From positions 11,183 to 75,182 of the forward strand of contig CALXPK010000024.1 in assembly GCA_944390265.1 (NCBI GenBank): a stretch of DNA of 64,000 nt. Reading direction: 5' to 3'. This document shows positions 5,693 through 50,046 of the stretch, piece after piece. The translations under genes were made by a program, and so were the position numbers. The stretch is from an uncultured Alphaproteobacteria bacterium (GTDB lineage Bacteria; Pseudomonadota; Alphaproteobacteria; RF32; CAG-239). Under the pieces are notes generated by a model that did not search any database, was not told the origin of the DNA, and saw only the letters and a list, made by a program, of their open reading frames with translations. Each line of letters begins with the position of its first letter. The first letter of the stretch is position 1.

Positions 5693-7564
5693 ATGGCTGA
5701 TTTACAAAAGTTTTGCGATGAATTGCGCGCGAAGGTGTCGATTGTTGATGTGGTCGGCGCCAAGGTTAAACTCGTGCGCAAAGGGCGTGAATATCAGGCT
5801 TGTTGTCCGTTTCATAATGAAAAGACACCGTCTTTTACCGTGAATGAAAGCAAAGGTTTTTACCATTGCTTTGGGTGCGGTGCGCATGGTGATATCATCA
5901 AATTTGAGATGGAAGCCAATAATCTGTCATTTATGGAAGCCTTGGAAAAACTGGCGGATAAAGCCGGTTTGCAAGTGCCGCGGGATTCTTATGCCAAGCC
6001 GGAAGAGGTGGAACGCCGTAACTCGCTCTATGATATTATGGAGCTGGCTTGCAAGTTTTTTGAAAAATCATTGCGGATGCCGGAAGGAGCACGGGCGCTG
6101 GATTATTTATCTTACCGTGGTTTCGGTGATGATATCATCCAAAAATTTCGCTTAGGTTACGCGCCGAACAATAATGGGCTGAAGACTTATCTTTCCTCTA
6201 AAGGGGTGAAAGAAAATGAGATGCACGAGCTTGGGCTTTTGACCATCCCCGAAGATAAAACCCGTCGTCCGCATGACTTTTTCCGCGATCGTGTGATGAT
6301 TCCGATTATGGATAAACGCGGCAAGGTGATTGCCTTTGGCGGGCGTATTATGGGTGACGGCCAGCCCAAGTATCTGAACTCGCCGGAAACACCGGTTTTT
6401 AACAAACGTCGCGTGCTTTATAACCTTAACAATGCCAAAGATGCCGGATATCAGGAGAAAAAACTCATCATCTGCGAGGGGTATATGGATGTTATCGGCA
6501 TGGATAAATACGGCATTCATTATGCCGTGGCGCCCCTCGGAACGGCTTTGACCGAAGACCAAATTCAAGAGGCTTGGCGGGTGGTGGATGTGCCGACCTG
6601 TTGCTTTGACGGCGATTTGGCGGGGCGACGTGCCGCGGTGCGTTCGGTGGACCGCGTGTTGCCGATTTTGAAAGCCGGAAATTCCCTGCAATATGTTTTT
6701 TTGACCGGCGCCAAAGACCCTGATGAATTTTTGAAAACACTCGGCAGAGAGGCTTTTGATAAGGCTATATCTGAAGTTGTTCCGCTTAAAGATTTGATTT
6801 GGCAAAAAAACATCGAAGGAAGAGACGTTTCGACGCCGGAACAAAAAGCCTTGATTGAAAAAAATATCAAGGAAGAAGTGGCCAAAATCAGCGACGAAAC
6901 GGTGCGCAATTATTATATTCAAGAAATGCAAGATAAAATCTACAACGAGCTCGGCAAGGGAGCCAGCTGGCGCAAGCGTCAACAGGCGGTGCAGAGCGGG
7001 GCGCCGACTTATACCAAAGAGTTTGGGCGCAATTATCTGCAAAAATCTCGTTATGCGGCTAAAAATGACAGTGTTTCCGTGCGTCAGGCTCAGCTCGCCA
7101 CACCCAAAGTGCATTTGGACGAGCTGGTGGCAAAATATGTGGTTTCGGCTTTGGTTTTGTATCCGAATCTTGTGGACGAATATGAGGAAAAAATATCTAA
7201 TTTCAATATAAAAAATCCGCAACTTAATGCCTTACTTGAAAATATTATCTCCCTTAATGAGGATGAAAAAGTTGAGGATTTTGCCGCTATGTATGACAAA
7301 CTCAAACAGCGTGGTTTGCAAAAAGATGTTGATACGCTGTTGGAGTTTAAAATGCTTAAATTGCAGAACCCTAACGATGCTCGTATGCGCGAGAATTTGG
7401 ATTTGCGGATTTTGGAATCTCAGCTCAAACAGCTTGATGCCGAAATTAAGGAATGTTTGCGGGTGATGGAAACTTCCGACTCGCTTTCCGACGAGGTCTA
7501 TAAACGCTACGAGTCGCTCAAAAAAGAAAAAGAAAATTTGCTCGCGGCACAAGAATTTGATTGA
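5693..7564 (+). CDS. dnaG: DNA primase
   Basis: Zinc ribbon CCPFHNEKTPSFTVNESKGFYHCFGCGAHG; TOPRIM segment LIICEGYMDVIGM; 623 aa. Confidence 0.95.
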   Translation: MADLQKFCDELRAKVSIVDVVGAKVKLVRKGREYQACCPFHNEKTPSFTVNESKGFYHCFGCGAHGDIIKFEMEANNLSFMEALEKLADKAGLQVPRDSYAKPEEVERRNSLYDIMELACKFFEKSLRMPEGARALDYLSYRGFGDDIIQKFRLGYAPNNNGLKTYLSSKGVKENEMHELGLLTIPEDKTRRPHDFFRDRVMIPIMDKRGKVIAFGGRIMGDGQPKYLNSPETPVFNKRRVLYNLNNAKDAGYQEKKLIICEGYMDVIGMDKYGIHYAVAPLGTALTEDQIQEAWRVVDVPTCCFDGDLAGRRAAVRSVDRVLPILKAGNSLQYVFLTGAKDPDEFLKTLGREAFDKAISEVVPLKDLIWQKNIEGRDVSTPEQKALIEKNIKEEVAKISDETVRNYYIQEMQDKIYNELGKGASWRKRQQAVQSGAPTYTKEFGRNYLQKSRYAAKNDSVSVRQAQLATPKVHLDELVAKYVVSALVLYPNLVDEYEEKISNFNIKNPQLNALLENIISLNEDEKVEDFAAMYDKLKQRGLQKDVDTLLEFKMLKLQNPNDARMRENLDLRILESQLKQLDAEIKECLRVMETSDSLSDEVYKRYESLKKEKENLLAAQEFD

Positions 7565-7701: not shown

Positions 7702-9771
7702 ATGTCAGATATAGATAGTCCGGACCTGTATGAAGGTACTGCCAATGACACACCTTTGATTGATAATCTCGGCAGTGCCGTCAAACGCCTGATTGATAAA
7801 GGTCGCGTCAGAGGCTTTATTACGGTTGAAGAACTGAACAGAGCTTTGCCTCCCGAAAAAGAGTCTTCCGAAAATATTGAAGATATTATGACCAGTATCT
7901 CCGATATGGGAATCAGCATTATCAACGAGTCGGATGCTGATGACTTCAATGGTGAAGAAGAGGAAGATGTTGAAGATTTTGACGATGAGGATGACAGCGG
8001 CAATTTTGATGAAAGAGAACTCGGCCGCAGTGATGATCCGGTCAGAATGTATCTGAAAGAAATGGGCACGGTTGAGCTTTTGTCCCGCGAAGGTGAAATT
8101 GCCATTGCCAAACGTATTGAAGCCGGCAAAACCGTGATGATTGACGGTTTGTGCTAAAGCCCGTTGACCCTGAAAGCCATTGCCGGTTGGCGCGATGATT
8201 TGGTTGAAGGCCGTATGCAACTTCGAGATATCGTCGATTTGGAAATGATGTACGGTGATGATGCCGATGCTCTGGCTTTTGAAGAAGATGTGGCTTCTGC
8301 CGCGGATGACGACTTTGAAAAAGTGGCCGAGGAAATTGAAGAAAAAGACAGCCTCGATGATATTGACGATGATTTGACCGACGATATTGAGCTCGAAGAT
8401 GCCGAAGATGATGTCGATGAAGCTGAAGATGATGCCGATGCCGACGGGCAAGGTGATGCTTCCGGCGACGGCGATGATGATGAAAACGGATCCGGTCGAA
8501 TTTCGGCTTCGGTTTCTTCTATGGAAGAGGCTTTGATGGAGCCGGTGTTGGAAATTTTGAACAAAATCTCCAGCTATTATGATGATTTGAAAAAAATTCA
8601 AAGCCAACGCGTGGCCGCCATTATTGCCGGTAAAAACGTTGCGCCTTCGGTTGAGAAAAAATATGTTCAGGTGAAAAAAGAGCTCGTGGAGTTGATGAGC
8701 TCAATTCACCTCAATGCCGTGCGCGTGGAGCAATTGGTGGAGCAACTTAACGAAATTAACCGCCGCTTGATGGGCTTGGAAGGCAAACTCTTGCGTTATG
8801 CTCTTTCTTGCAAAATTAAACGTGAAGATTTCTTGGCTGCATACCAAAAGTCGGAACTTGATCCGAACTGGCTTGAGAAAATTTCTAAGAAAACCGACAA
8901 ACACTGGAAAAACTTTGTCGAGAAATATGGTACGGAAATTAAAGAATTGCGCGAAAATATTGCGCAAATGGCCACTGAATGCGGTTTGCCCATCAGCGAA
9001 TATCGTCGCATGGTAGACACCATTAAAAAAGGTGAACGTGAGGCCGAGCGTGCTAAAAAAGAGATGATTGAAGCCAACTTGCGTTTGGTTATCTCCATTG
9101 CCAAGAAATATACCAACCGCGGTCTGCAGTTCTTGGATTTGATTCAGGAAGGTAACATCGGTTTGATGAAGGCCGTCGATAAGTTTGAATATCGCCGTGG
9201 TTATAAGTTTTCTACCTACGCCACATGGTGGATCAGACAAGCTATTACCCGTTCGATTGCCGATCAGGCACGCACCATTCGTATTCCGGTTCATATGATT
9301 GAAACGATTAATAAATTGGTTCGCACATCACGCCAAATGTTGGCCGAAATGGGCCGTGAGCCGGTGCCTGAGGAATTGGCCAAACGCTTGTCCATGCCGC
9401 TTGAAAAAGTGCGTAAGGTTATGAAAATTGCCAAAGAGCCGGTTTCTTTGGAAGCTCCGGTCGGTGATGAAGAAGATTCTTCTTTGGGCGATTTCATTGC
9501 TGATGAAAGCGCTTTGCAGCCGTTGGATTCTGCCATCCATTCCAACTTGAAAGAAACCTGCACCCGCATTTTGTCCTCGTTGACACCGCGTGAAGAGCGC
9601 GTGTTGCGTATGCGTTTCGGTATCGGTATGAACACCGACCATACTTTGGAAGAAGTTGGTCAGCAGTTCAACGTGACGCGTGAAAGTATTCGTCAGATTG
9701 AGGCCAAGGCCTTGCGTAAGCTCAAACACCCGAGCCGGTCACGTAAGCTGCGTTCTTTCTTGGATAACTAA
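7702..9771 (+). CDS. rpoD: RNA polymerase sigma-70 RpoD; single reading frame interrupted by an in-frame TAA at 8155-8157 (codon 152)
   Basis: Region 1.1 acidic N-terminus and the IAKRIEAG...DGLC segment, then TAA, then the same frame continues [15 protein letters not shown]... through the acidic insert and regions 2-4 ([30 protein letters not shown]). Confidence 0.85.
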
Positions 9772-10216: not shown

Positions 10217-10657
10217 ATGACACATTATACGGCACAAGATAAACATGACATGGAAGTGGCTTTTGATGCCAGAAATCCGTCTCGGTTGCAAGAACTGATT
10301 GATTTTTGCAAGATTTCCGGTTTCAAAAAAATCGGGGTGGCCAATTGCAAAGGGGTGCAGGAATATGCCGAAAAATTTGTAAAAAAATTGCAAGATGCCG
10401 GATTTGAGGTTTGTGCCATCAACTGCAAACAAAGTGGTTTGGACGGAGCTGAAATTTGTGAGAAAATGGCCGGTCCGAGTTGCGATCCGATTTCGCAAGC
10501 CAATTTTTTGAACGAATGTCAGACCGATTTTAACATCAATTTCGGTTTGTGTTTGGGACATGGCTTGTTGTTTCAAAAATATTCCAAAGTGCCGGTGACA
10601 ACGTTTTTGGTGAAATCTATGGGCAATAATCATAATATTTTGGAATTGCTTGATTAA
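10217..10657 (+). CDS. Cysteine-rich hypothetical protein (possible metal-binding; DUF1847-like is a guess)
   Basis: RBS taggag 7 nt upstream; 8 Cys in 146 aa. Confidence 0.55.
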   Translation: MTHYTAQDKHDMEVAFDARNPSRLQELIDFCKISGFKKIGVANCKGVQEYAEKFVKKLQDAGFEVCAINCKQSGLDGAEICEKMAGPSCDPISQANFLNECQTDFNINFGLCLGHGLLFQKYSKVPVTTFLVKSMGNNHNILELLD

Positions 10658-10748
10658 TTTTTTGTTTGACAAAAAAAATAATCGGATTAATGTCTTTTCT
10701 TATGCGATTATTTTTTATATATTATTGTTTAACCAAAATTTTTGTCCT

Positions 10749-11189
10749 ATGAAGAAAAGAGAATTGATTGTAGACAATGCCGAAAAAGCATTAAAGTCTA
10801 TGTTGGCTATGTTGGCTGCAAATATGATTGACAATGAGTTGGATAATTGTGAGGCAACCGAGAAAGGGGTTGAGTTGCAAGGAGTTAAATATCCGGTCAA
10901 ATTGGTTTGGTTGGAAAGAGGCGATAATGATTTGGTTGGTTGTCCTTGCTTTGCTTGCAATTTTAACGGAATGTTGCCTACGGGAGCTCATATTAAAGCA
11001 GTGGTTTATGTGAAGGCATTTGCGGCTCGGACTTTTACCATGTGCAAAATGCATATGTTAAAAGATGAAGGTAATGTAAAATGTCGAGAAATTGCTGACG
11101 GAGATTCGTTTGTGATGAACGACAACAGTAAGGGATACGGCGAAGAGACGTATCTTTACAAAAATGGCAAGATTTCTTTTGTGAAATAG
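10749..11189 (+). CDS. Hypothetical protein with CPCFAC and C-X-C zinc-ribbon-like motifs
   Basis: ORF followed by a terminator; the start position is uncertain. Confidence 0.45.
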   Translation: MKKRELIVDNAEKALKSMLAMLAANMIDNELDNCEATEKGVELQGVKYPVKLVWLERGDNDLVGCPCFACNFNGMLPTGAHIKAVVYVKAFAARTFTMCKMHMLKDEGNVKCREIADGDSFVMNDNSKGYGEETYLYKNGKISFVK

Positions 11190-11203
11190 GCTTTTTGATA
11201 GAT

Positions 11204-11238
11204 CTCGATAGATGGAATGTCTATCGGGATTTTTTTTG
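11204..11238 (+). terminator. Intrinsic terminator
   Basis: cgataga-tggaatg-tctatcg followed by ggattttttttt. Confidence 0.6.
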
Positions 11239-11305
11239 TTCAGGCGTTGAAAATAGGGCTTGACTATATGGTATGAATCGCCTATTTTCATAGCTGTCAA
11301 CTGGC

Positions 11306-11382
11306 GGGCCCATAGCTCAGTTGGTTAGAGCAGGCCGCTCATAACGGTCTGGTCGTTGGTTCGAGTCCATCTGGGCCCACCA
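11306..11382 (+). tRNA. tRNA with CAU anticodon, strongly resembling the lysidine-type tRNA-Ile2 (ileX); elongator Met is the alternative
   Basis: Cloverleaf folded by hand: acceptor GGGCCCA/TGGGCCC, D-arm GCTC-AGTTGGTTA-GAGC, anticodon arm GGCCG-CTCATAA-CGGTC, T-arm GTTGG-TTCGAGT-CCATC, ACCA end. Confidence 0.9.
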
Positions 11383-11383
11383 T

Positions 11384-11420
11384 AAAAAAATCCCCTCCCA
11401 AAGCGGAGGGGATTTTTTTA
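11384..11420 (+). terminator. Terminator directly after the tRNA
   Basis: atcccctcc-caaagc-ggaggggat followed by T7. Confidence 0.6.
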
Positions 11421-11619
11421 TGGTGAGAAGAAAGACAGCTCGAACCAACGAGGTCGTCGGGCTCGCAGGAACAAAAAATGTTTGGGAAACATTTTTTGCC
11501 GAGAGCTATAGCAGCGGTTAGGCGGCGACTTGCCGACAGGCAATTAAGCCGGTGTTACCGCTGGCTTGCCCGAAGCGGAGTTGTTGAGCGCTTTAAAAAG
11601 CGCGAAATTTACGAAGCAA

Positions 11620-11696
11620 GAAGAGTCCATCTGGGCCCACCATAAAAAAATCCCCTCCCAAAGCGGAGGGGATTTTTTTTATGGTGAGAAGAAAGA
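11620..11696 (+). repeat. Direct repeat of the tRNA 3' end (gagtccatctgggcccacca) plus terminator plus atggtgagaagaaagaca, a second copy of 11362..11437; att-like duplication
   Basis: About 76-bp near-identical direct repeat bracketing about 182 bp that includes an inverted partial T-arm copy (11441-11460, cgaaccaacgag). Confidence 0.7.
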
Positions 11697-11781
11697 CATT
11701 TTTTTTATGGTGAGAAGAAAGACATTTTTTTTATGGTGAGAAGAAAGACATTTTTTTTATGATGAGAAGAAAGATATTTTT
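11681..11781. repeat. Tandem repeat, 26-bp unit atggtgagaagaaagacatttttttt, 4 copies (last one degenerate)
   Basis: Read directly from the sequence; no unique spacers between units. Confidence 0.8.
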
Positions 11782-11865
11782 GGCGTGAGGGAAAAGATAT
11801 GATTGACAGCAGAACAAAAATGAATTTTACTCATCTGCAGATTTTATTTATGCGGTGGAGATAAT

Positions 11866-13026
11866 ATGAAAAAAATATTTTTGGCTTTGTTTTTCTTATT
11901 GTGCTCGGCAAACGCTGCCTCAGCCATGCAGATTTTTATTTTCACTTTGAACTCAAAACATATCACTCTGGAAGTTGAGCCTACGGATAAAGTGGAAGAT
12001 ATTAAACTGAAAATTTTGGATAAAGAAGGGGTGCCGGTCGATCAACAGCAATTAACTTTTGACGGCAAGGTGTTGAAAGATGGCTATACTTTGCAAGATT
12101 ATAGCATTCAAAAAGATTTTACTCTGAATTTGGTTTTGAAAAGTGAACTTAATATTGAGGCTTATCAGCTCAACTTTAATCCGGTTAATGTTGTCAGACA
12201 GAATACAGATATGTTGTTGAATACCATATCTTCTCGCACCACCGGCGGTATTCAGGCCTCAGCGGGCGGGGAGCAGATAAACCCCAAGGATAATTCATCT
12301 CTTTGGGTGAACAGCTTGACCGGACATTCCGAATATGCGGGAACAAATAGTAATGGTTTGGTCATGGGTTTTGAGAAAAAAACTTCGGCTTTTAAATATG
12401 GTTTGGGATATGGTTATTTGGAAAATGATATTGACGGCTTAAACTATGGTGCAGAAGCCAAAACACATTCCGGTTTTGTTTATGGTGAATATAAGCCTTC
12501 TTCTTGGTATGCTCATGCCATGCTGACCTATTCTCATTCGCGGTTTGAGGAAAATGATTTGAGCAAATATAATTTTCAGGCCGTCAGTTCTCAGATTATG
12601 AGCGGATATGATTTTGGCAATATAACGCCGGAAGCCGGTTTTAGATATATGCATATTTGGAATGATGATTATAGAGATGCAAAAAATGTTTATCTGTTTG
12701 AAAATGACGAAAATTTTTTGACGGGAATTGTCAGTGCCAAAGCGGACAAAGAGATAAAACTTGATAATGGATATCTCCTTGTGCCGCAGATTAAGGTTTC
12801 TGCCTTGTATGACTTGATGCAGGCAAATACTGATACGGGAGTTTTGATTTATGGGAATTATTATCAAATCAATACCGACAAAATTTCAAAATATGGTACG
12901 GAAATCAACCTCGGCGTTGAGCTGGCCAAGCAGAATCTTTGGTCCGCATATCTGGGTTATTACGGCCAGTTGAGAAATAATTATAATATGCATTCTGCGG
13001 TTTTGAATTTTCAATATGATTTTTAA
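11866..13026 (+). CDS. Autotransporter whose passenger is a eukaryote-like ubiquitin domain (signal peptide + Ubl + linker + C-terminal autotransporter beta-barrel)
   Basis: Signal peptide [20 protein letters not shown]; residues 21-92 [72 protein letters not shown], about 46/72 identical to ubiquitin by hand alignment; C-terminal about 250 aa with [13 protein letters not shown]... and terminal NFQYDF typical of autotransporter beta-domains. Confidence 0.85.
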
Positions 13027-13258: not shown

Positions 13259-13335
13259 GGGCGTGTAGCTCAGGTGGTTAGAGCGCTACGTTCACATCGT
13301 AGAGGTCACAAGTTCGAGTCTTGTCACGGCTACCA
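13259..13335 (+). tRNA. tRNA-Val (anticodon CAC)
   Basis: Cloverleaf folded by hand: D-arm GCTC-AGGTGGTTA-GAGC, anticodon arm CTACG-TTCACAT-CGTAG, T-arm ACAAG-TTCGAGT-CTTGT, ACCA end; one G-G mismatch at pair 3-70. Confidence 0.85.
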
Positions 13336-48834: not shown

Positions 48835-49710
48835 ATGATGAAAATATTGTCTTTTGATATTGGCGGAACAAAAATTGCTTTTGCGCTTGTGGATGAAGCG
48901 GGAAAACTCCTTACGCAGCCGGTGAAATATTCAACACCGGCCAGCAAAGAGGCTATCGAATCCTTGTTGAAAAAGATTATTGCTCAACATGAAAACGAGA
49001 TTGATGCCGTTGCCATTTCTACCGCCGGAACGGTTGATATTTGTAACCAAAAAATCACCGGTTCGGTCGGAAATTTGCCGGAAGGTTATGGCAAAATTGA
49101 TTTCCAAGCGCTTTCCAAGAAAAAAGTTTTTGTGGTCAATGACGCCAATGCCGCAGTGTGGGCCGAATATAAGGTTGGGCATGCGCAGGGTATGGATAAT
49201 GTGGTGTTGTTGACGCTCGGTACCGGCGTTGGGGTCGGAATCATTATAGATGGGCATTTACTAAAAGGAAAATCCGGTGCGGCCGGAGAGGTGCATTTTC
49301 CGGTCAGACAAGATAATCATCGTCGTTGCGGGTGTGGAAATTATGATTGTTTGGAAGTCTATATGTCCGGAACGGCGCTTAATTTGGATGCTAAAGAAGC
49401 CTATAAAGATGATAATATGACTAGCCATGACATTATTGCCGGTTTAAAAGAAAATGATGCCAAAGCCTTGAGCGTTTTTGAGCGCTGGGAGAGTATGGTG
49501 GAGACAGGAGTTCGAATTTTTGCCAGTATTTTTGATCCGGATATTATTTTGCTCGGCGGATCGATGGCGCATTTTATCAATTATCCGATGATGGAAAAAC
49601 ATGTTAATGAGGCGATTGTGACTTCTCCAATCAAACTTAAAGAGGCTGAGTTTGAAAACAATGCCGGCATTATCGGCGGGGCTTTGCTTTGTGCCGAGAG
49701 TTTGAAGTGA
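48835..49710 (+). CDS. ROK-family sugar kinase (plausibly an N-acetylglucosamine kinase)
   Basis: ILSFDIGGTKIAFALV; zinc motif CGCGNYDCLEVYMSG. Confidence 0.85.
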   Translation: MMKILSFDIGGTKIAFALVDEAGKLLTQPVKYSTPASKEAIESLLKKIIAQHENEIDAVAISTAGTVDICNQKITGSVGNLPEGYGKIDFQALSKKKVFVVNDANAAVWAEYKVGHAQGMDNVVLLTLGTGVGVGIIIDGHLLKGKSGAAGEVHFPVRQDNHRRCGCGNYDCLEVYMSGTALNLDAKEAYKDDNMTSHDIIAGLKENDAKALSVFERWESMVETGVRIFASIFDPDIILLGGSMAHFINYPMMEKHVNEAIVTSPIKLKEAEFENNAGIIGGALLCAESLK

Positions 49711-49713
49711 GTG

Positions 49714-49790
49714 CAAATCCCTACGTGACTTTTAAAATGAAAAAAGACAGCTTTCGCTGTCTTTTTTGTATGGTAGCGAGAGAGGGATGG
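49714..49790. repeat. Direct repeat of 49909..49985: caaatccctacgtgac + terminator hairpin + an 18-nt copy of the tRNA-Met 3' end (tggtagcgagagagggat)
   Basis: Two near-identical roughly 77-bp units about 195 bp apart; an inverted partial T-arm copy at 49897-49916. Confidence 0.6.
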
Positions 49791-49970
49791 GCTAAAAACT
49801 TTTTATATAAAAAGTTTTCTTAACGCCGACCTTGAAAGATTTTGCCTAAAGGCAAAACCGGCATACTCCCGTCTGCCTTCTTTCAGCGGTTCAAACCCAC
49901 GCCTCGTGGGTTCAAATCCCTACGTGACTTTTAAATATGAAAAAGGCGGTAAGAATACCGCCTTTTTGTA

Positions 49971-50046
49971 TGGTAGCGAGAGAGGGATTCGAACCCACGA
50001 CACAAGGATTATGATTCCTCTGCTCTACCGACTGAGCTATCCCGCC
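49971..50046 (-). tRNA. tRNA-Met (CAU), elongator-like
   Basis: Reverse complement GGCGGGATAGCTCAGTCGGTAGAGCAGAGGAATCATAATCCTTGTGTCGTGGGTTCGAATCCCTCTCTCGCTACCA folds as a cloverleaf with a CAT anticodon. Confidence 0.9.

Follow-up and report, generated by a model that had tools for sequence, protein, structure and literature searches.

Downstream of a tRNA gene with a CAU anticodon, in a 64,000-nucleotide stretch of DNA from an uncultured alphaproteobacterium (GTDB lineage RF32; CAG-239; contig CALXPK010000024.1; hereafter the window), the tRNA's 3' end and the terminator that follows it occur twice. The two copies (A1 and A2) are separated by a short spacer and followed by an array of 26-bp tandem repeats, which leads up to a gene encoding a ubiquitin-autotransporter. 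We propose that A1, the spacer and A2 probably form one unit of a module of the same type as the tRNA-linked repeat (TLR) units found downstream of tRNA and rRNA genes in Escherichia coli, with a strain-variable array attached. The positions of the features, numbered from the first letter of the window, are collected in Table 1.

ARAGORN labels the tRNA at the head of this locus as Met, due to its CAT anticodon. Its alignment with ileX, together with its position downstream of dnaG-rpoD as in ileX, indicates that it is almost certainly a lysidine-type tRNA-Ile. The stem of its terminator (t1) takes in the CACCA of the tRNA, and the same hairpin design is found in related loci. Alignment of the two repeat copies shows 57 identical nucleotides (11363-11419 and 11623-11679), one extra T in the second T-run and 18 further identical nucleotides. 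The unit from 11420 to 11698 sits on the same strand as the upstream tRNA and between two hairpins with T-runs (11378-11425 and 11638-11686). An initial annotation, made from the sequence of the window, had described this near-exact recurrence, an inverted copy of the T-arm and a non-coding spacer. All three hold with adjusted limits: the repeat (11363-11437 and 11623-11698) shifts by 1-3 nt, the inverted copy is a perfect match of 13 nt at 11439-11451, for which the earlier span of 11441-11460 was slightly too long, and the spacer measures 185 nt (11438-11622) instead of 182. The segment that we call y mirrors the tRNA 3' end in position across the terminator and is the source of the 18-nt part of the 26-bp unit. 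The 18-mer ATGGTGAGAAGAAAGACA occurs five times at up to 3 mismatches, against 0.08 occurrences expected, and always at the tRNA(CAU) locus.

The spacer is GC-rich (0.52-0.56, against about 0.25-0.45 for most flanking sequence) and folds better than shuffled sequences on both strands. Between the window and a related contig (L090, see below) it carries 9 substitutions. In the plus-strand fold, six of them are unpaired and three preserve a pair (UA to UG, GU to GC and GC to GU); in the minus-strand fold, two fall in paired positions and both break pairs. No Rfam family scored above chance for the spacer or insert of this unit, and ARAGORN found neither a tmRNA nor a second tRNA in the spacer. 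A coding spacer was rejected, as its open reading frames (ORFs) of 55 and 41 amino acids have no Pfam match and a 93-amino-acid 'gene' in a same-species contig (L002) runs off the contig end. We also rejected a decayed, convergent tRNA on the minus strand, of which only the T-arm half matches and for which Rfam gives no minus-strand tRNA match at this place.

Table 1. Features of the two tRNA(CAU) loci of the window
Feature	Positions	Strand	Remarks
tRNA(CAU), ileX-like tRNA-Ile2	11306-11382	+	ARAGORN, Rfam; close alignment with E. coli ileX
Repeat copy A1	11363-11437	+	tRNA positions 58-76, terminator, ATGGTGAGAAGAAAGACA
Terminator t1	11378-11398 / 11405-11425	+	21-bp perfect hairpin; T-run 11413-11419
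Segment y, ATGGTGAGAAGAAAGACAG	11420-11438	+	conserved as ATGGTRAGAWNAAGACMG in related modules (comparison, 12 loci)
Inverted arm	11439-11451	+	perfect reverse complement of 11353-11365 (tRNA positions 47-59, TCGTTGGTTCGAG)
GG spacer and degenerate direct copy of T-arm 5' half	11452-11465	+	TCGTCGGGCTCG vs TCGTTGGTTCGAG; read from sequence
Insert I	11466-11622	+	GC-rich, several hairpins; fold z = -3.4 on + strand
Repeat copy A2	11623-11698	+	b', terminator t2, first y unit
b', copy of the last 20 nt of the tRNA	11623-11642	+	T-loop G57 to CCA; TLR hallmark
Terminator t2	11638-11686	+	hairpin and T-run
26-bp tandem array	11672-11781	+	Tandem Repeats Finder: period 26, 4.2 copies, 97% matches
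Old degenerate unit, TTTTTGGCGTGAGGGAAAAGATATG, then possibly a decayed inverted arm, CAGAACAAAAATGA	11776-11823	+	
Promoter-like TTGACA-17-TTTACT	11803-11831	+	22 nt after array; candidate for ubiquitin-autotransporter gene; read by eye, not reported by promoter scan
Second tRNA(CAU), Met type	49971-50046	-	
TLR-type module downstream of Met-type tRNA(CAU)	49707-49970	-	opens with t1
Met module, inverted arm, GGGATTTGAACCCACGA	49920-49904	-	followed by GG
Met module, direct copy, CGTGGGTTTGA	49901-49891	-	
Met module, insert I	49890-49789	-	
Met module, b', ATCCCTCTCTCGCTACCA	49788-49771	-	18 nt; followed by t2, y'
Met module, decayed next inverted arm	49721-49707	-	start of a further unit

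Strain variation and the 26-bp array

Each unit of the array consists of T8 plus y. The initial annotation had counted four units at 11681-11781; the array begins slightly earlier, its first unit overlapping A2, and after A2 there follow three perfect units and one variant unit. In a shifted register, positions 11750-11801 match a 52-nt reference copy at 69%. The old degenerate unit behind the array is present in all strains.

Metagenome contigs of the same species were recovered via exact-protein look-ups. For orientation, the RpoD of the window is 75-82% identical to those of metagenome-assembled genomes of uncultured gut or rumen Alphaproteobacteria (89% across the conserved C-terminal part). 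Contig L002 differs from the window by 3 single-nucleotide polymorphisms in about 1350 nt outside the array (99.8% identity), and its array, like that of L091, which has the same arrangement, holds three diverged units plus the old degenerate one. L090, about 95-97% identical to the window outside the array, spans the whole locus and keeps the tRNA, the repeat, the spacer and the second repeat, with a single unit plus the old one. L001 matches the window and has a scaffold gap in the array; both have four units or more. For the copy number of the array, which the initial annotation had suggested checking, the strains give 1, 3 or 4+ units, and since unit number differs between strains of the same species, the array is a variable-number tandem repeat.

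The second repeat copy also varies. Its first 15 nt match in all these strains, and they are followed in L002, L091 and L090 by GTGCAA (GGGCC-GTGCAA), where the window has CACCAT (GGGCC-CACCAT). Because most same-species strains carry the diverged second copy, the perfect 75-nt repeat of the window is best read as a derived, recently homogenised state, for which the tRNA copy may have served as donor in a conversion, or ATGGTG as the reference of a hairpin-templated correction.

All same-species contigs that extend across the module carry it, and it is fixed in the species. An assembly artefact was rejected, since independent metagenome assemblies carry the arrangement, L090 the whole of it and L001, L002 and L091 part of it. 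In two contigs of other genera (L003 and L005), rpoD and the tRNA(CAU) with its terminator lead straight into unrelated genes, and both the spacer and the second copy are missing. The comparison with empty sites proposed in the initial annotation therefore gives a divided answer, the module being absent in other genera and present in all the spanning contigs of the species. The same holds for its view that an identical arrangement in related genomes, with no polymorphism, would speak against insertion at the tRNA: related strains do share the arrangement, but the array and the second copy are polymorphic.

The array, whose end lies about 85 nt before the ATG of the ubiquitin-autotransporter gene, does adjoin that gene as had been reported, and an effect on its promoter is possible. 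One explanation would make the array, and perhaps the whole module, a regulatory upstream region in which unit number tunes or phase-varies the promoter. It draws on the 22 nt that separate the array from the promoter-like sequence of Table 1 and on the change of unit number among strains that are otherwise nearly identical. However, the genes downstream of the related modules described below are unrelated to one another and some of them are convergent, and the units duplicate the module's terminator tail, so that we hold this explanation to be very unlikely.

Related modules at the same and at other tRNA genes

A weak blastn match led to a record (MT837473.1, L094) in which the same layout downstream of the same tRNA has a different filling. 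Scanning the metagenome collection with a pattern made of the tRNA end and the inverted arm only returned 10 loci on gut or rumen metagenome contigs. The full list of parts is also present in seven of them; the other three are incomplete, L098 at its contig end and L103 and L104 as truncated modules. The inverted-arm motif is found at the equivalent place in L094-L104. The order in these sister modules is y (ATGGTRAGAWNAAGACMG), the inverted arm (CTCGAACCAACGA), a spacer of two or three bases, a direct copy (GTTGGTT(C/T)GA) whose last base is A58 of the T-loop, a GC-rich insert of 85-105 nt, a copy of the tRNA end (18-20 nt, from position 58/59 to CCA) and a second terminator. In L099 the tRNA-end copy tracks the acceptor variant of the host's own tRNA, and the second terminator of L096, L100 and L102 is similar to those found in the window, L003 and L008.

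After its second terminator, L094 holds the start of a second, decayed module, indicating that modules stack, with the newest next to the tRNA. This decayed start is homologous to the y segment, inverted arm and degenerate direct arm of the window unit (45 nt; z = 8.3; reached by 0 of 1000 shuffles), and the homology takes in the direct T-arm copy of the window (11454-11465). As to the record itself, the tRNA-Ile(CAU) with one full and one decayed module (6307-6806) ends a sequence labelled 'Bacteriophage sp.' (unverified), which is probably a bacterial fragment. A further contig, L008, the closest by DnaG identity (63%), has the sequence ATGATTCGAACGTAACACTACCTGCG... after the terminator (8020-8124) and ends 100 nt past the tRNA; this stretch may be a collapsed variant of the module.

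The window itself contains a second TLR-type module, on the minus strand downstream of a Met-type tRNA(CAU), with arms copied from the T-arm and 3' end of its own tRNA. No module accompanies the tRNA-Val at 13259. The core of the Met insert (AGGCAGACGGGAGTATGCCGGTTT) aligns with the core of L097 (z = 11.8), and an exact search for it found it downstream of tRNA-Pro(UGG) in two IMG/VR contigs (L105 and L106), again with arms copied from that tRNA. The TLR-type layout thus occurs at three tRNA species in this gut alphaproteobacterial clade, and comparison of the copies indicates that the module ends are copied from whichever tRNA precedes (Ile-CAU, Met-CAU or Pro-UGG). Without exception, the break in the copied tRNA sequence falls between A58 and N59. 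This layout is clean in the Met unit and in L094-L105; in the window unit the direct copy is degenerate and the tRNA-end copy starts from G57.

We built a covariance model (R1) of the insert, characterised by an insert core (AGGCG..CGCCGGU) and a hairpin, and aligned 11 sequences with it. Six of nine base pairs changed on both sides, and 89.8% of cells were paired, against 31-52% with the partner slid, values that were reached by none of 500 shuffles; as the alignment was fitted to the structure of the model, the covariation counts are biased toward that structure. The Met unit, which belongs to the training set, scored 56.4 bits. The arm hairpin varies only from G-C to G-U, which favours the plus strand. 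In minimum free energy (MFE) folds of the Met, Pro, L097 and E. coli lysQ units, the inverted and direct arms pair with each other; the inverted arm of the Met unit additionally pairs with the beginning of the 3' copy, and the insert is looped out at 58/59. The inverted arms of the Met (49920-49904) and Pro (L105) modules and of the 5S-linked unit of E. coli rrnB (L108, 320-420) all read GGATTTGAAC, with a T at a position for which complementing the Met and Pro host tRNAs (TTCGAAT) would predict C; the direct arms often read GGTTTGA.

Relation to E. coli TLRs and origin of the module

The TLRs of E. coli number 22 units at ten tRNA or rRNA operons, and what defines them is a 3'-terminal stretch of 18-19 bp that exactly repeats the 3' end of the gene upstream (PMC8144298). 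The unit of rrnB, located between terminators T1 and T2, is transcribed via T1 read-through and processed, and its repeated end is a proposed RNase E processing signal; the family has been described since 1978 (Egan & Landy 1978, Rudd 1999) without an established function (PMC8144298). The layout of the tyrT and lysQ units, with inverted arm and A58 split, is our own reading of the DNA and not a published definition. In the tyrT units (the rtT repeats), the T-arm region recurs in inverted form, followed by AAGGTTCGA, an insert and ATCCTTCCCCCACCACCA, with the split at A58|A59. The lysQ unit agrees with that of the window at each point: the terminator is followed by 19 nt, GATTCGAACCTGC (a perfect inverted arm of 13 nt), AGC, AGGTTTGA, an insert of 65 nt, ATCCTGCACGACCCACCA and a second terminator that is identical to the first, and the tRNA end (18 nt) and terminator form an exact direct repeat of 54 nt. 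The internal lys and arg units of E. coli are shorter variants.

The window and other alphaproteobacterial modules resemble these units in several respects. Each directly follows a tRNA gene and shares its strand; their 3' end equals the end of the upstream gene (20 nt in the window, 18 nt in the Met unit and 15 nt in L090, L002 and L091); they sit between two terminators at the end of an operon, as at rrnB (T1/T2) and lysQ; and, as at lysQ and tyrT, the T-arm is copied first in inverted and then in direct orientation, the latter as far as A58, ahead of a GC-rich insert and positions 59-76. They differ in their host, an uncultured low-GC alphaproteobacterium, in the longer arm hairpin of the sister modules (10-11 bp), in the first terminator of the ileX-type loci, the window included, which is a perfect palindrome with ACCAT/ATGGT, and in the variable 26-bp array at the window locus.

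A number of observations weigh against assigning the window unit to this class. Rfam RtT (RF00391) did not match the alphaproteobacterial modules at E up to 10 or 0.1, a hidden Markov model (HMM) of the E. coli core matched none of them, and R1 matched neither the E. coli tyrT-locus units nor, at E up to 10, the window spacer (11438-11622). No promoter was found inside the unit by the promoter scan, and t1 is a strong terminator. The GTGCAA alleles, which leave most strains without the ACCA end, argue against a strict processing-mimic function here. The window unit may also be a decaying copy, since its direct T-arm copy is degenerate. RtT is a narrow test, because it misses E. coli's own rrB (L108, rrnB T1-T2) at E up to 0.01, and the curated family therefore covers only part of the TLR class. 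What the window unit has in common with the R1-type modules is confined to flanks and positional hairpins, and pairwise comparison of its spacer with E. coli or L097 gives short hairpins with z about 3. Sequence homology to E. coli TLRs is not supported, as HMM and covariance-model tests failed in both directions; in consequence the relation rests on position and architecture, and it could be convergent.

With these points in the balance, we still consider a TLR-type unit the probable explanation. Its order is the tRNA, its terminator, an inverted T-arm 5' half, a direct T-arm copy to A58, a hairpin-rich and GC-rich insert, tRNA positions 57/59-76 and a second terminator. As the strain comparison suggests, gene conversion would hold the downstream copy in register with the tRNA (GTGCAA to CACCAT in the window strain), and the 26-bp array would have arisen by slipped-strand expansion of the terminator T-run plus y.

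The initial annotation had instead read the duplication as the footprint of insertion and excision by an integrase, or as a miniature tRNA-targeting element. Of the first proposal only the geometry fits, in that the repeat starts in the T-loop; no recombinase ORF was found in or beside the spacer or at the module in those related loci whose ORFs were inspected, the spacer had no similarity to phage or plasmid DNA, and the arrangement is fixed. The second comes closer, the unit belonging to a recurrent class of tRNA-associated modules whose mobility is hypothetical. The search for the spacer and the unit elsewhere that the annotation had called for found them unique within the window and 1.1 Mb of fetched loci. 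A dispersed mobile element was accordingly rejected, an exact 22-mer being absent from metagenome and viral collections as well.

As a relic or miniature integrative element (a genomic islet, CIME-like) the locus would consist of attL (A1), 185 bp and attR (A2), left, after deletion of the interior, by a T-loop tyrosine integrase that had inserted DNA with a substitute tRNA 3' end. Sites of P4-type integrases are said to start in the T-loop and run through the tRNA end, the very geometry of our repeat, and the likeness to the attachment sites and remnants of tyrosine integrases extends to accretion next to the tRNA, the newest module being proximal. In L094-L102, moreover, the proximal terminator differs from the distal one, which is of the ancestral type; L003 and L005 lack the module at this tRNA; and the spacer is GC-rich relative to the genome. 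Against this stand the lack of any recombinase gene or fragment in or beside the module wherever ORFs were inspected (window spacer, L103 and L105), the location of the only integrase seen (in L105) at a neighbouring tRNA-Arg, and the phage, plasmid and viral collections, in which neither the spacer, the alphaproteobacterial core nor the E. coli TLRs had a match beyond mislabelled chromosomal records. The whole insert lies between the T-arm-like left core and the crossover point, which is not how an attP core is arranged, and an insert core conserved with covariation is not expected of junk. Given a 185-bp interval with a conserved structured insert, fixed in the species, we regard an integrative relic as unlikely. 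Two more specific lines were rejected: a phage attP origin, since MT837473.1, the sole 'phage' match, holds the whole tRNA and module and looks bacterial; and the use of the IMG/VR matches as support for a phage, since there the prophage, with its integrase adjoining the next tRNA, does not include the module. In L105 (7662-8735 and 8910-9425) that provirus integrase is beside tRNA-Arg(TCT), and the neighbouring tRNA-Pro module is outside the prophage.

The module could also be a functionless local rearrangement, a direct-inverted-direct duplication (of the tandem-inversion-duplication type) driven by the palindromes of the terminator and T-arm hairpins and followed by decay. Positions 11383-11451 are 79% identical to the reverse complement of 11353-11420, so that tRNA positions 47-76, the terminator and the next segment make up one large palindrome with interruptions; there are 1.3 copies of the unit, the distal partial copies being decayed. 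Such an event leaves unexplained the conserved insert common to modules at three tRNAs, the constant A58|N59 split and the same layout in E. coli, and we give it little credence. Stacking, the difference between proximal and distal terminators, the constant split point and the absence in other genera point to some insertional process. Origin by reverse transcription, suggested by the likeness of the 18-nt tRNA-end copy to a retroviral primer-binding site, was dropped, there being no reverse transcriptase nearby; we know, too, of no A58 modification in E. coli that would set the copy boundary.

A further model, which we hold to be quite unlikely, would make TLR-type modules non-autonomous elements that integrate into the tRNA T-loop as folded single strands. 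It is prompted by the MFE pairing described above: the inverted arm would pair both with the direct copy of the T-arm and with the first part of the tRNA-end copy to give a duplex replica of the T-arm, with the insert looped out at A58|N59. Replication after one strand exchange, performed by a recombinase of the host, would then yield an intact tRNA, a new terminator, arms and insert, and the displaced original tRNA end. In the attP(+) of the CTX phage and the attC of integrons, similarly, a foldable inverted repeat rebuilds the duplex target (here, by prediction only, the T-arm) and a segment is looped out at the point of exchange; for the window module, an enzyme, a circular form and an integration event would all be hypothetical. 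If true, this model would account for the host-matching 3' copy, the stacking, the recombinase-free units and the tRNA-like palindrome in the 5S-linked unit of E. coli.

Neighbouring genes and significance

The gene downstream of the array (11866-13026) encodes a secreted protein with a signal peptide and a ubiquitin domain (Pfam E = 8e-21), the latter sharing about 71% identity with the ubiquitin of eukaryotes. Its C-terminal part is autotransporter-like; PF03797 is recorded for homologues and not for the window protein. About 25-30 full-length homologues (32-65% identity) occur in varied genomic contexts, and the named sources are all uncultured Alphaproteobacteria. In comparison with L090, the region 10217-13026 has a mosaic identity: DUF1847 shows 85% identity and the ORF after it has been replaced, but identity is 95-100% in the block that begins with the tRNA promoter and runs through the ubiquitin-autotransporter gene to its end, and L090 has an extra outer-membrane protein gene before the tRNA-Val. 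This mosaic suggests that the block of tRNA, module and gene has been exchanged between lineages. Upstream, rpoD contains an in-frame TAA at 8155-8157 (GLC*SPLT) where the same-species contigs L083 and L084, which encode an intact RpoD of 689 amino acids, have GAA; the gene being essential, this is either a nonsense mutation or an error of the consensus. In L085, the sequence switches to GC-rich unrelated DNA right after the ORF upstream of the tRNA (1141-1288), and this contig is probably a chimeric assembly.

To our knowledge, TLRs have been described only from enterobacteria and close relatives. Their detailed anatomy is now seen in a distant, uncultured clade of gut Alphaproteobacteria, at three tRNA species and with inserts of independent sequence, which implies that the layout itself is either conserved or repeatedly generated. 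For annotation, the locus advises caution, in that a duplicated tRNA 3' end alone is no evidence of an integrated island. The alphaproteobacterial modules provide comparative material for the ideas that these units are processing mimics, sponge RNAs or tRNA-targeting elements.

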